A DNA stretch of 22,948 bases from an uncultured archaeon (GCA_964525635.1 CAZGJX010000071.1:1-22948); one strand, 5' to 3'; positions 3,537-21,880 are shown, counted from the stretch's first letter. Numbers and translations: made by a program. Notes: generated from the letters alone by a model not told the origin.

Positions 3537-3833
3537 TTAATATCTTCTATCCTTACCAATTATGTTTACATTAAGAGCTTCTGGTCCTTTTCCATTATTA
3601 TTATCTATTTTTACATCAAATTCAACCTCATCTCCTTGATCGAGTTTCTTAAAACCATCCATTATAACATTTGAAAAATGAACAAATATGTCTTCTTCTT
3701 GGTCATTTATGGAGATGAAGCCAAATCCTTTTTTATAGTCGAACCATTATAATTTATCTTAGAAATTAAGATAAATTTTTACCCATCCGACTTTTCTATT
3801 GCTATTATCTAATTCATTCTTTTCTTCTGTCAT
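3537..3833 (-). CDS. cspA: Cold-shock domain protein, spliced: join(3833..3777,3746..3537), 88 aa
   Basis: Manual translation: MTEEKNELDNSNRKVGWVK|WFDYKKGFGFISINDQEEDIFVHFSNVIMDGFKKLDQGDEVEFDVKIDNNNGKGPEALNVNIIGKDRRY*. RNP-1 (KGFGFI) and RNP-2 (IFVHF) are intact. A 30-nt insert splits VK|WF. Absent from the ORF track. Confidence 0.9.
3747..3776 (-). other. Putative BHB/BHL mRNA intron (30 nt) in cspA
   Basis: Sequence ATTTATCTTAATTTCTAAGATAAATTATAA with two in-frame TAA. Inner helix TTTATCTTA/TAAGATAAA (9 bp); central helix GTAA/TTAT; bulges AA^A and AA^T; exon-exon helix AGTCGGA/TTCGACT. Confidence 0.85.
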
Positions 3834-14180: not shown

Positions 14181-14723
14181 TTGACAGATTTTGATTATAC
14201 TTTTAAGGTAATGATGGTTGGTGATGCTTCAGTTGGAAAAACCTCTCTTACAATTAGATTTATATCTGGCTCATTTTTAGAAGATCTAAAACTAACGATC
14301 GGCGTAGATTTCTATAGTAAAATAACACTTTTTAAGGAGAAGCGAGTTAAATATCAAATATGGGATTTTGGAGGCGAGCAGAGATTCAGGTTCTTATTAC
14401 CCCAATATTGCAGAGGTGCAAATGCTGCATTTTACCTATACGATATAACTAAACCTGTTACTCTAAACCATTTACCAGATTGGACAAATATTATACGTGA
14501 ACATGCTGGAGATATACCAATTATATTAATTGGATCTAAAGTTGATTTAGAAAAATATAGAGGTATACCAAGAGAAGAAGGGTTACGAGCGAAAGAAAAA
14601 TATAATTTAGCATCATTTCTTGAGCTATCTTCAAAGACGGGTAAAAATGTTGAGAAAGCATTTAGAATAATGACGAAAATATTATTCAAAAAATATGTAT
14701 ATGTTGATAGAGGAGAATTCTAA
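14181..14723 (+). CDS. Rab-like small GTPase (Asgard eukaryotic signature protein)
   Basis: GDASVGKT, TIGVDF, IWDFGGEQRF, GSKVD, SSKTGKNVEKAF; no C-terminal prenylation cysteines. Confidence 0.9.
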   Translation: MTDFDYTFKVMMVGDASVGKTSLTIRFISGSFLEDLKLTIGVDFYSKITLFKEKRVKYQIWDFGGEQRFRFLLPQYCRGANAAFYLYDITKPVTLNHLPDWTNIIREHAGDIPIILIGSKVDLEKYRGIPREEGLRAKEKYNLASFLELSSKTGKNVEKAFRIMTKILFKKYVYVDRGEF

Positions 14724-17101: not shown

Positions 17102-17342
17102 AAAACCATAATCTAAAATACCAATACCAATACCTATTACCAAAAGTTATAACATAATTTCATCTATATCCTACCAAAAAATTTTTATTTTTTGCCTGAT
17201 TTAAGATAATATAGTGGAGTACTCATTAACTAATTCTCTAATGTATTTCAATTTTATTTTAAAAAAAAAAAAGAAAATCAACCATGATTATAAATAAGTA
17301 TAAATTAATTCAATTAAAATTAAAAAAGGATGCCTATTTCTT

Positions 17343-20300
17343 ATGAGCTATACATTCTCAAGAACTAAATTAATAGAGAAAATTAAGTTTGGGCTTCTGA
17401 GTCCCGACGAAATCAGAAAAATGTCATCTGCAAGGATCATCACGGCAGATACATATGATGAAGATGGACTGCCGATCCCTTCCGGTTTGATGGATCAACG
17501 GTTGGGAACGATTGAGCCGGGTCAGAGATGCCAAACCTGTGGAAATCTTGTATCAAATTGTATGGGGCACTTCGGACATTAAATTTCTTTTATGAAAGCA
17601 TTTCGCTTTATTTGTCTAAATCGAGTTGGCCCGTCCAGTTATCCACGTAGGCTATTCTAAAAAAGTATTAAAAATATTGAGATCGATATGTCCAGAATGT
17701 TCAAGATTAATGCTTTCTGAAGAAGCTAAAGTAAACCTTCAAAAAGAACAACAATTACATCATAAACTCTCCTATGAAGGGGATGATGATATTACTAAAA
17801 TTGTCTTTAAAAGAGCGAGAAAAAATAAAATATGTCCTTATTGTGGTGCTAAGAAAAAAAAGATAATTTTGGAAAAACCAACTACTTTCTATGAAGAAGA
17901 AGAAGCTAAAGGCTCTCGACGATTAACACCCATAGAAATTAGAGAACGAATGAAAAAAATGATGGATGTAGATCTTCGAGTTTTAGGAATATCACCACAA
18001 AATGCAAGAATGGAATGGGTTGTTTTCACTGTTTTACCAATTCCTCCTGTATGTGCTCGACCTTCAATTACACTAGATAGTGGTATACGCTCTGAAGATG
18101 ATTTAACACATAAACTTGTAGATGTAATTCGAATTAATCAAAGATTAAGAGAAAATATAGATGCTGGAGCACCACACTTGATAGTTGAGGACTTATGGGA
18201 ACTATTACAATATCATATCACAACATACTTTGATAATCAAGTATCTGGAATCCCTCCTGCTAGACATCGCTCTGGTAGAGCATTAAGGACACTAACACAG
18301 AGATTAAAAGGAAAAGAAGGGCGTTTCAGGAGCAATCTCAGTGGAAAGCGTGTAGATTTTTCAGCTAGGAGTGTTATTTCTCCGAATCCACATATAAGTA
18401 TTAATGATGTTGGTGTTCCACAAAAAATAGCTAAAATATTAACTATTCCAACTAATGTAAATGATTGGAATATTGAACAGATGAAACAACTAGTGTTAAA
18501 TGGACCCAATAAACACCCTGGAGCGAATTATATTATTAGGAATGATAGACGAAGAATAGATCTTCGTTATGTTAAAAATAGAAAAATAATCGCAGACATG
18601 CTAGCACCAGGATTTACTGTTGAAAGACATTTAAACACTGGAGATTTAGTATTATTTAATCGACAACCATCGCTACACAGAATGTCGATTATGGCTCATG
18701 AAGTAAAAATTATGGATGGTAAAACATTTCGTTTAAATCTTACCGTATGCCCTCCTTATAATGCAGACTTCGATGGTGATGAAATGAACCTTCATGTCCC
18801 TCAAAGTGAAGAAGCAAGAACAGAAGCAGAATTATTACTAAAAGTTCAAGAACATATATTATCTCCTCGTTTTGGTGGTCCAATTTTGGGGGGAATTCAA
18901 GATTTTATATCAAGTATATTTCAATTTACGGGGTTGGATTCTTTATATGATGTTAAAGACACTTTAAAATTACTCTTTATGGGAGGAATCTTCGATTTAC
19001 ATCCCGATTTTGATTTAAAAAATATCAAACCAATCAAAACTGAACCTGAACCAATGTACTCTGGTAAACAAATTTTTAGCACACTTTTACCTAACGATTT
19101 AAATTTAAGATTGAGATCAAAATTCTGTAAAAAATGCTTTATTAAAAATGGAGAAAAATGTAAAGAAGAAAAGTGTGAATATGATGCATATGTAACAATT
19201 AAAAATGGTGAACTACTTACAGGTACCATTGATGAGAATTCATTTGGTGCAATGCAATCAAATAGTATTCTTCAAAGAATAATTAAGGACCATGGAAACG
19301 CAACGGGTAGAGAATTTTTAGATAACGCTACTAGAATGCTTCTTTATGTTATTAGACAAAATGGTATAACAATGGGACTCGATGAAGTATTTGTCAAAGG
19401 TGAAGCATTTGAACATATTCAAAAAGTATTACATGACGCAACTGATGAATCAAAACGTCTTATAAAAGCATTTAGAGAAAATGATAATAAAATCTTAAAA
19501 AGAGCACCTGGACGGTCATTAAAAGAAACTTTAGAATTACGAATTAGACAAGTTCTTGCTGAAGCGCGTAAAAAAGCAGAAGAATTAGCTTCACATTATA
19601 TTGGAGATGATGCTCACTCAGTTATTATGACTAAATCTGGAGCAAGAGGAAATATATTAAATTTAGGACAAATGTCAGCAGTTGTTGGACAACAAGCTAT
19701 CAGAGGTGAAAGGATAAATAGAGGTTATTCTTCAAGAACTCTTCCACATTTTAAAGTAGATGATTTAACACCAAAAGCTAGAGGATTTGTAGAACAATCC
19801 TATAGAAATGGACTTGAACCTGCGGGCTTCTTCTTCCATGCTATGGGCGGTAGAGAGGGCTTAGTGGACACTGCGGTAAGGACATCAACGAGCGGTTATA
19901 TGCAAAGGCGCTTAGTTAACGCTTTACAAGATATGGTTATAGAAAATGATGGAACTGTCCGCAATTCAGATAAAAACATTATTCAATTCAGATTTGGAGA
20001 TGATTCAGTAAATCCTCAACACACAGATCATGGTGCTGCCGTTAACCTAGATGTCCTATTACTTAAAGCAAAAACACTTGATTTAGAAGAAATTAAACAT
20101 AAAGGTAAGAAACCTGTAGACACCAAATCCAAAAAACCTACACCAGAAAAAGAAGCCAAACTTAAGCCTTCAACAACGGCAACTACACCTAAATCAACAA
20201 CAAAGAAACCTACACCTAAACCATCAACAAAGAAATCAACTAAAGCTCCTGATGAAGATTCATTACAAGAAAAATTTAAAGAGGAAACTGGAAAAAATGC

Positions 20301-20370
20301 GGTTTGGCGTGGTAAAATAACTCAGCAATATATTGAGTGGAAAGAGCAAAACTATGGAATTAAGGAATAA
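17343..20370 (+). CDS. rpoA1: RNA polymerase subunit Rpo1N (A'), spliced: join(17343..17579,17620..20370), 995 aa
   Basis: [26 protein letters not shown]|[38 protein letters not shown]. The two ORF-track pieces join into one gene when 40 nt are removed. Confidence 0.95.
17580..17619 (+). other. Putative BHB/BHL mRNA intron (40 nt) in rpoA1
   Basis: Sequence TAAATTTCTTTTATGAAAGCATTTCGCTTTATTTGTCTAA. Central helix GGAC(17574-77)/GTCT(17614-17); bulges AT^T and AA^A; inner helix AAAT/ATTT; hairpin AAAGC-ATTTC-GCTTT. Excision gives GGA CAT ATC GAG TTG = GHIEL. Confidence 0.88.
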
Positions 20371-20644: not shown

Positions 20645-21880
20645 ATGACAAAAGTTACAACTCAAATGTTGAATAGATCTTTAAAAGAATTAGAAGATGA
20701 TGGAATTCCAAAGGATTTAGTTGACAAGATCCGGAATAAAATAAAAGATGAAGATTTGGAAGAAGAACAACTTGAATACCTTCTCAATAAAGTATTTATC
20801 AATTTCAATAATGCAATTGTTGAAGCTTCTGAACCTGTAGGAACTGTAGCTGCACAATCGATTGGTGAACCTGGAACACAAATTTTATTGCAATTGGCAA
20901 TATAAGTGGAAATGACACTAAGAACCTTTCACTACGCAGGAGTGGAAGAATTCTCAGTAACTCAGGGTTTACCTCGTCTGATTGAGATAGTGGATGCACG
21001 TCGATTTCCTTCTACTCCAAACATGACAATCTTTTTGGATAAAGATCACTGTAAGGATGAGAATGAAGCAATTAAAGTTCACAATAGGATTGAACAAATT
21101 AGAATTGAACAAATTAGTTCAGAAGTGGATCTGGATTTTGTTAATTGGAATATTGTTATTAATTTAATACCTAAAATCTGTGATAAAAAGGGAATTGATA
21201 TCGAAAAGATTCCTGAGATCTTAAAACGATATAAAAAGAAAGGTTCGATAAAAAGAGAGGGAAATAAAATAATTATCGATCCTGGAATTGAAGACTTACA
21301 ACAACTTCAAAAACTGCGTGAAAAAATACTTAAAAAAGTTGTTAAAGGTATAAGAGGAGTTAAAAGAGGTTTATTAACACCTTCTGATGATGGTAATGAA
21401 TGGGTCATTAAAACAGAAGGGACAAATATGGTGGGTGTTGTTCAAATAGAAGGTGTTGATGTTACAAGAACTACCTCAAATCATATTCATGAAGTTGAAA
21501 AATTGTTTGGAATTGAGGCCGCAAGAGCTCTTATTATTGAAGAGGCTAAAAAGGTACTTGAACAACAAGGTTTAGATGTCGATTTAAGGCATTTATTAAT
21601 CCTTTCTGATTTAATGTGTGGAACGGGCGCAATTCAATCTATTGGAAGGCATGGTATTTCTGGAGCAAAATCAAGTGTGTTTGCAAGAGCTGCTTTTGAG
21701 GTTACTGTTAATCAATTACTAGATGCTGGTTTATACGGTGAAGAGGAGCGTTTACTAGGTATTCCGGAGAATGTTATAGTAGGACAGGTCTGCCCAATAG
21801 GAACTGGTCGCGTATCCATACAATTCGATTTAGATAAAAATCTAGAAATCTTAAAAGGAAGGAATATCCAAAAAAATTAA
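20645..21880 (+). CDS. rpoA2: RNA polymerase subunit Rpo1C (A''), spliced: join(20645..20881,20912..21880), 401 aa
   Basis: EPVGTVAAQSIGEPGTQ|MTLRTFHYAGV (trigger loop), VTQGLPRLIEIVDA, RAAFE, ENVIVGQ, GTG. Confidence 0.95.
20882..20911 (+). other. Putative BHB/BHL mRNA intron (30 nt) in rpoA2
   Basis: Sequence ATTTTATTGCAATTGGCAATATAAGTGGAA with an in-frame TAA. Inner stem TT/AA plus TATTGC/GCAATA; central helix ACAC/GTGG (3 of 4 paired); both bulges AA^A. Excision gives CAA ATG = Q-M. Confidence 0.85.

Follow-up and report, generated by a model that had tools for sequence, protein, structure and literature searches.

A candidate BHB intron in rpo1N, the gene of the largest RNA polymerase subunit, in a Loki-type Asgard archaeon and its relatives

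Background

Among archaeal protein genes, cbf5 carries a BHB intron inside its coding sequence, and studies of this intron reportedly include those of Watanabe in 2002 and Yoshinari in 2006. The intron is present in the cbf5 pre-mRNA of Crenarchaeota, in the orders Desulfurococcales and Sulfolobales (Yokobori 2009, PMC2738675), and it is for cbf5 of Crenarchaeota that archaeal coding-sequence splicing has been reported (PMC2738675; PMC5829648, refs 22-24). In the literature that we searched, no spliced archaeal protein gene besides cbf5 was found, and no BHB intron in a protein gene of Asgard archaea; a 2026 preprint on Asgard introns covers tRNA genes only (bioRxiv 10.64898/2026.10.13.758758). 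The EndA of Asgard archaea is an (alpha-beta)2-type enzyme with an L1 loop, and has been linked to a broad substrate range (Kaneta et al., PMC5829648); heteromeric EndAs cut motifs with altered bulge sizes (PMC2724299).

Here we describe a 40-nt insert in rpo1N of an uncultured archaeon, which we interpret as a BHB intron of an mRNA. As in cbf5, it would be a short BHB element inside a coding sequence, with a heteromeric endonuclease, precise boundaries, and presence and loss that are specific to lineages; unlike the cbf5 intron, it belongs to an Asgard archaeon (Lokiarchaeia-type), interrupts the largest RNA polymerase subunit in its zinc-clamp motif, has several sites in the same gene of relatives, and is predicted here to be spliced. 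With tRNA introns of TACK and Asgard archaea, both the non-canonical and the multiple ones, it shares a motif of 4-bp helix and bulges that occurs in relaxed variants (in rpo1N, a 3-nt 5' bulge and a 5-nt 3' bulge), a small size, and predicted enzymes (PMC5829648; bioRxiv 10.64898/2026.10.13.758758); in contrast to those introns, its host is an mRNA, with no tRNA body to aid recognition, and its exon-exon helix is built from codons and leaves a footprint at synonymous sites. Archaeal rRNA BHB introns and processing stems also involve EndA-type cleavage outside tRNA, but they lie in non-coding RNA and are usually longer, whereas in rpo1N the frame has to be restored to the exact base. Inteins occur in RNA polymerase subunit genes of Methanocaldococcus, and there too a strongly conserved motif of an essential gene for the polymerase is interrupted by an intervening element; an intein, though, is excised from the protein after translation, whereas the rpo1N insert is 40 nt long, contains a stop codon, and shifts the frame.

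Results and discussion

An interruption in the zinc-binding clamp motif

The window, that is, the whole stretch of DNA that was analysed, is a contig of 22,948 nt (C71) with a GC content of 23-34%, and it belongs to a metagenome-derived assembly of 4.45 Mb in 245 contigs (G000), the completeness of which is estimated at 100%. Relatives in the public record are labelled Promethearchaeota or Promethearchaeia (Loki-type Asgard archaea), and Ca. Lokiarchaeum ossiferum gives a 71% match to exon 1 of rpo1N. A gene for a small GTPase of the Ras/Roc family, typical of Asgard genomes, lies in the window at 14181-14723 (+; Pfam Ras, 147 bits).

As it stands, rpo1N (Table 1) is read as two ORFs in different frames, 17343-17582 (79 aa) and 17626-20370. 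The junction reads GGG CAC TTC GGA CAT ^ TAAATTTCTTTTATGAAAGCATTTCGCTTTATTTGTCTAA ^ ATC GAG TTG GCC CGT, where ^ marks, here and below, a boundary or predicted cut. The initial annotation had described a frameshifting insert of 40 nt at 17580-17619 with a TAA right after His79, and the sequence agrees exactly: the first codon of the insert is TAA, and its length is not a multiple of three. Removal at the predicted bonds gives GHFGHIELARP, the same as in the intron-less congeners (G001-G003), with the mature sequence restored exactly; the bases flanking each boundary differ, so the junction cannot slide. In the TIGR02390 profile exon 1 matches positions 2-72 and exon 2 positions 73-866. As the exons abut both there (72^73) and in the other RpoA' profile, NCBIfam PRK08566 (77^78), the stretch 17580-17619 is a clean interruption, with nothing missing or duplicated.

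The annotation had also held that the gene is otherwise intact, and had set this against pseudogenisation. Its view stands: a search of G000 found rpo1N in a single copy, exon 2 is open for 916 codons, encodes all five Rpb1 domains and reaches 1190 bits with the RpoA' model, the exons join seamlessly in the profile, and the exon 1 protein has 100% amino acid identity to the uninterrupted genes of G001 and G003. The window has no rpo2 (RpoB) gene directly upstream of rpo1N; scans of the whole window with Rfam and ARAGORN gave no family at threshold and no tRNA, respectively, and inspection of the 40-nt intron by eye revealed no C/D-box-like motif.

Table 1. Position of the rpo1N exons, the predicted intron and the elements of its predicted fold in the window
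Feature	Position	Strand	Remarks
rpo1N (RpoA') exon 1	17343-17579	+	79 codons; ends in the zinc-binding clamp-core motif (...CMGHFGH); PRK08566 positions 4-77
40-nt BHB intron (predicted)	17580-17619	+	TAA at 17580-17582 in frame with exon 1; absent in G001-G003
rpo1N exon 2	17620-20370	+	916 codons to the stop; no start codon at its beginning; PRK08566 positions 78-877
Central helix H, 5' strand GGAC (exon 1)	17574-17577	+	pairs with 17614-17617
Central helix H, 3' strand GUCU (intron)	17614-17617	+	4-bp helix
5' bulge A-U^U	17578-17580	+	predicted cut 17579/17580; 3-nt bulge between H and h' in 12/12 genomes
3' bulge A-A^A-U-C, 5 nt, relaxed	17618-17622	+	predicted cut 17619/17620; AA^A in 11/12 genomes
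Intron stem h'	17581-17613	+	17581-17584 with 17610-17613; 17595-17599 with 17605-17609
10-nt bulge of h'	17585-17594	+	in the 5' strand of h'; alignment A1
Loop of h', 5 nt	17600-17604	+	alignment A1
Outer exon-exon helix h, 5' strand (GGGCACUUC region)	17564-17573	+	8/10 positions pair with 17623-17632
Outer exon-exon helix h, 3' strand (GAGUUGGCCC)	17623-17632	+	pairing in 12 genomes and synonymous-codon footprint

Predicted fold and cleavage register

Splice sites were placed by a register rule in which the cut follows four bases of helix and two of bulge. The rule was calibrated on the canonical 37/38 tRNA introns of G000, where in four of the five tRNAs tested only shift 0 yields 5/5 of the anticodon stem as h, and the same four have 3-4 of the 4 H pairs at the unshifted register. 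Applied to rpo1N, it predicts cleavage at 17579/17580 and at 17619/17620, in agreement with the junction demanded by the protein and exactly with the 17579/17620 join that the initial annotation had derived from a GGAC/GTCT helix with AT^T and AA^A bulges. Among 200,000 shuffled introns, H together with the first four stem pairs in exact register has P = 5.7e-4.

Between H and h' the 5' bulge has the canonical form A-Y^N. Three pairs, 100% paired, close the bulge that holds the 3' AA^A; as this bulge has 5 nt instead of 3 nt, the rpo1N motif is classed as a relaxed BHB, a form that resembles those which heteromeric EndAs reportedly cleave (PMC2724299, PMC5829648). A relaxed form of another kind, bulge-helix-loop, had been proposed along with imperfect pairing of the exons. 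The imperfect pairing is there (GGGCACTTC with GAGTTGGCCC, 8/10 pairs), but the bulge-helix-loop form is not, as both bulges exist and the 3' one has 5 nt.

By alignment A1, which comprises the 12 intron-bearing genomes introduced below, the 40-nt intron of G000 has the 30-nt architecture of its family plus a 10-nt bulge in the intron stem; the stem opens with only four A-U pairs, and is the weakest of the 12. The region was folded, one of the checks proposed with the annotation: H, the bulges and the stem can form in register; the constrained BHB fold (-17.5 kcal/mol) lies 3.4 kcal/mol above the minimum (-20.9) and is thus not the minimum-energy fold in G000. The minimum-energy fold retains three of the four H pairs in register. 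The z-score of local folding is modest (-1.8).

Insert-bearing and insert-free relatives

Of 135 genomes of the family, 12, G000 included, have an insert precisely between codons His79 and Ile80 (site A; genus g1, 1/4; g5, 3/10; g11, 5/54; g2, 2/42; g3, 1/7), and none was found in 26 genomes from other families of the class. The insert measures 40 nt in G000, 31 nt in G155, and 30 nt in G028, G016, G005, G069, G117, G064, G077, G007, G075 and G108, and in all 12 it brings in-frame stops or a frame shift. The inserts are almost wholly different in sequence, save for the bases that the fold requires. In the congeners G001-G003 the motif GHFGH^IELARP is uninterrupted and the insert cleanly absent, so that within the genus the intron rests on a single genome; near the junction G000 and its congeners differ at 7 positions per 30 nt, against about 5 elsewhere, which is no outlier. 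The annotation had suggested a comparison of relatives for presence or absence of the insert and for compensatory changes in the helix, and both were found.

Some of the introns in genera g5 and g11 have a common loop, ACAATWAG, on stems that differ by compensatory changes, so that the distribution of site-A introns is at least partly by descent. In the explanation that we favour, site A belongs to an rpo1N intron hot spot in one Lokiarchaeial family; the intron is patchily distributed among genomes.

Compensatory change and codon usage

Alignment A1 was scored against one explicit structure. Of all cells 87.5% are paired; shuffling gives 74.2%, and none of 500 shuffles attained the observed value, although these shuffle statistics overstate significance because kin genomes are not independent; in a control with partners slid by 1-3 columns, 35-55% of cells were paired. 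The central helix H is paired in all 48 cells of the 12 genomes, with a third pair that is AU in five, GU in four, GC in two and UG in one. All eight counted pairs of the intron stem h' change on both sides among the genomes while 92-94% remain paired, and the outer helix h is paired in 78% of its cells (100% at the three pairs that adjoin the 3' bulge). The BHB fold is maintained by compensatory change across the 12 genomes, and unconstrained folding gives precisely this arrangement, h-H-bulge-h'-H-bulge-h, as the energy minimum in four of eight relatives.

On the 3' side of the insert, the codons for IELARPV encode an identical protein sequence in 12/12 genomes with synonymous variation, and in none of the 12 does a start codon lie between the stop of the intron and these codons; the two observations together indicate that the IELARPV codons are translated joined to exon 1. 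The choice of synonymous codons here is itself distinctive. Ala82-Arg83 is encoded as GCC-CGN in nine of 10 distinct intron-bearing alleles, whereas among intron-less alleles (n=50) GCC occurs in only three of the 12 commonest codon combinations, and GCA/GCT-AGA dominates. With GCC-CGN, the far end of helix h has a complete GGG:CCC, and this end is paired in 90-100% of intron-bearing and 32-56% of intron-less alleles. This apparent codon footprint points in the direction that the fold predicts, with a statistic that is weakened by kinship among the genomes.

Two intron-less loci of genus g5, L005 and L007 (in G031 and G018), nevertheless have exon codons typical of intron-bearing alleles (TTC GGA CAY ^ ATC GAA CTT GCC CGC), a pattern that would be expected after recent precise loss of an intron.

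Proposed splicing and other explanations

Two EndA-family ORFs were found in G000 (202 and 204 aa, both over the TIGR00324 cut-off and each with N- and C-terminal domains), along with one RtcB (554 bits). The EndA genes lie in the regions of C18:18795-19022 and C105:10281-10529. Register, covariation, absence from the congeners, and the presence of two EndAs and an RtcB all bear out the BHB-intron reading with which the annotation began. We give a probability of about 0.88 to the interpretation that 17580-17619 is an archaeal BHB intron in the coding sequence of the sole rpo1N gene, and from the same evidence we infer that the rpo1N mRNA is spliced.

In the pre-mRNA, GGAC at the end of exon 1 can pair with GUCU at the intron's 3' end, which gives a central helix of 4 bp, flanked by the intron hairpin h' and the imperfect exon-exon helix h, with AU^U and AA^A exposed in bulges on opposite strands. 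Under the proposed mechanism, a heteromeric (alpha-beta)2-type EndA would cut after the second base of each bulge (17579/17580 and 17619/17620), and RtcB would join the exons, restoring ...GHFGH-IELARP...; the released intron would probably be circularised, also by RtcB. From transcripts that stayed unspliced, translation would stop at the TAA and yield no more than a fragment of 79 aa.

It could be supposed instead that rpo1N is truly split, and that a 79-aa peptide and a protein of about 914 aa are translated separately and then assemble. Two open frames do exist, and RNA polymerase subunits are split in some archaea (RpoA'/A'', RpoB'/B''). The break, however, falls inside the invariant motif GHFGH^IELARP; exon 2 does not start with ATG, and the sole candidate start, a TTG at 17626, is itself inside the motif. 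What the 12 genomes keep in the insert is an RNA fold, not a start site or a ribosome-binding site, and the codons immediately 3' of it are conserved as protein. A split gene is very improbable in the light of this evidence.

The weak stem of G000, with its 10-nt bulge and a BHB fold that lies above the energy minimum, would also suit a decaying pseudogene, or an intron that is no longer spliced in this genome. Against such decay, which we consider highly unlikely, stand the facts that G000, with an estimated completeness of 100%, has no other rpo1N, that the second exon of this gene retains 916 open codons and a score of 1190 bits, and that its exon 1 protein is 100% identical to those of congeners. 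Removal of the insert from RNA by agents other than EndA and RtcB (an unknown nuclease and ligase, or self-cleavage) has nothing specific in its favour, the role of EndA and RtcB being a prediction; since the covarying structure is exactly an EndA substrate in the right register, and 30-40 nt is far below the size of group I or group II ribozymes, it too appears very unlikely.

In phage T4 gene 60, ribosomes bypass an untranslated gap of about 50 nt that, like the rpo1N insert, opens with a stop codon inside an essential gene. A hop over the 40 nt of rpo1N would fit the stop codon right after the last sense codon and the hairpin within the gap, but, unlike in gene 60, take-off and landing codons are unmatched (CAY before the gap, ...YCUAA before the landing point, in 12/12 genomes), and conservation falls on the helix and bulges of the BHB, for which hopping has no need; bypassing is therefore exceedingly improbable. 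An artefact of assembly or sequencing, conceivable in a metagenome assembly of 245 contigs, has a practically negligible probability, as an independent contig from another salt-marsh sample (run X6) spans 17300-17653 with no difference, insert included, and bears out the existence of the insert in DNA, and an insert occurs at this site in 11 more assemblies, which come from different projects. A further contig, from marine sediment (X13) and from an organism of 90-95% similarity, has 72 letters against 112 in the window, the 40-letter difference being that expected of an intron-less relative.

If the BHB intron is spliced as proposed, the organism would have no polymerase without mRNA splicing, and translation of rpo1N would have to await or tolerate RNA processing. 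The host gene encodes the catalytic subunit of RNA polymerase, and does so in an Asgard archaeon; Asgard archaea are the closest prokaryotic relatives of eukaryotes.

Additional inserts and codon composition in the window

Two more inserts were observed in the window. In rpo1C, 30 nt with an in-frame TAA (20882-20911, +) split GEPGTQ^MTLRTFHYAGV, in the trigger loop; the two pieces give contiguous matches to Rpb1 domain 5 (profile positions 66-92 and 89-265), and in the fold of the insert each side has an AA^A bulge, the stem has 9 positions, one of them mismatched, and the ACAC/GUGG central helix has 3/4 pairs. A degenerate pattern search of 135 family genomes found this insert in G000 only. 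In csp, a cold-shock-domain gene, 30 nt (3747-3776, -) split MTEEKNELDNSNRKVGWVK^WFDYKKGFGFI..., with GUAA/UUAU as the central helix, AA^A and AA^U as the bulges, and a stem of 9 bp that is perfectly paired. Together with rpo1N, three inserts of one build thus occur in a window of 23 kb, and standard gene callers split or truncate all three genes, with distorted marker-gene phylogenies and completeness estimates of these genomes as the consequence. Two scans of the whole of G000 for BHB-like motifs whose removal joins open frames showed no enrichment over wrong-frame decoys; the filters of the first miss all three introns of the window (through weak stem, 3/4 central helix or short exon), and the second was swamped by noise.

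Relatives have additional rpo1N sites. Site B, 4 nt downstream of site A, is occupied at L024, L035, L038, L034 and L037 (in G015, G102, G119, G075 and G108, respectively); it reads ...CAU AUAG^...^AG YUN, with 35-85 nt and a central helix AUAU/GUAU or AUAU/AUAU. G075 and G108 carry introns at both A and B, with just four nucleotides, AUAG, in between. In the central helix of intron B, pairing is 3/4 while intron A is present and 4/4 once it has been removed; completion of the helix only on removal of intron A suggests ordered splicing, and if intron B does need prior removal of intron A, splicing of this mRNA would be an ordered, multi-step process. A third site follows base 127 of exon 1 (codon 43, DEDG L^PIP), with inserts of 30-31 nt at L045, L044 and L043 (G007, G086 and G085); in G007 such an insert co-occurs with the site-A intron. 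Having zero, one or two introns, at sites separated by 4 nt, the genomes of the 12-genome series amount to a natural experiment, one that bears on how introns are gained and lost and on splicing order.

Codons 1-100 of rpo1N in G000 (17343-17680) have a GC3 of 0.35-0.55, compared with about 0.13-0.21 in the rest of rpo1N and the neighbouring genes, and 0.05-0.3 in the same codons of congeners. This raised tract could reflect co-conversion or selection for pre-mRNA structure; extending over about 300 nt around the intron, it looks like a co-conversion tract from an unsampled donor. The sampled genome and metagenome contigs contain no donor allele more than 84% identical to exon 1 of G000 and no other rpo1N intron of the 40-nt type, and a search of G000 for copies of the intron gave only short, AT-rich chance matches. 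The raised-GC3 tract, the restriction of the rpo1C intron to G000 among 135 genomes, and the uniqueness of the rpo1N intron within its genus hint that BHB mini-introns might still be on the move into genes for core information processing in this Lokiarchaeial lineage, through a mobility mechanism by which neighbouring exon sequence is carried with them, a scenario that we regard as possible but rather unlikely.

At its C-terminus (20095-20370) the Rpo1N protein has a tail of about 100 aa rich in K, P, S and T, followed by a small Trp-containing module, and its last 40 or so residues have weak matches at two other sites of G000 (C36:27710-27808 and C13:17992-18114).
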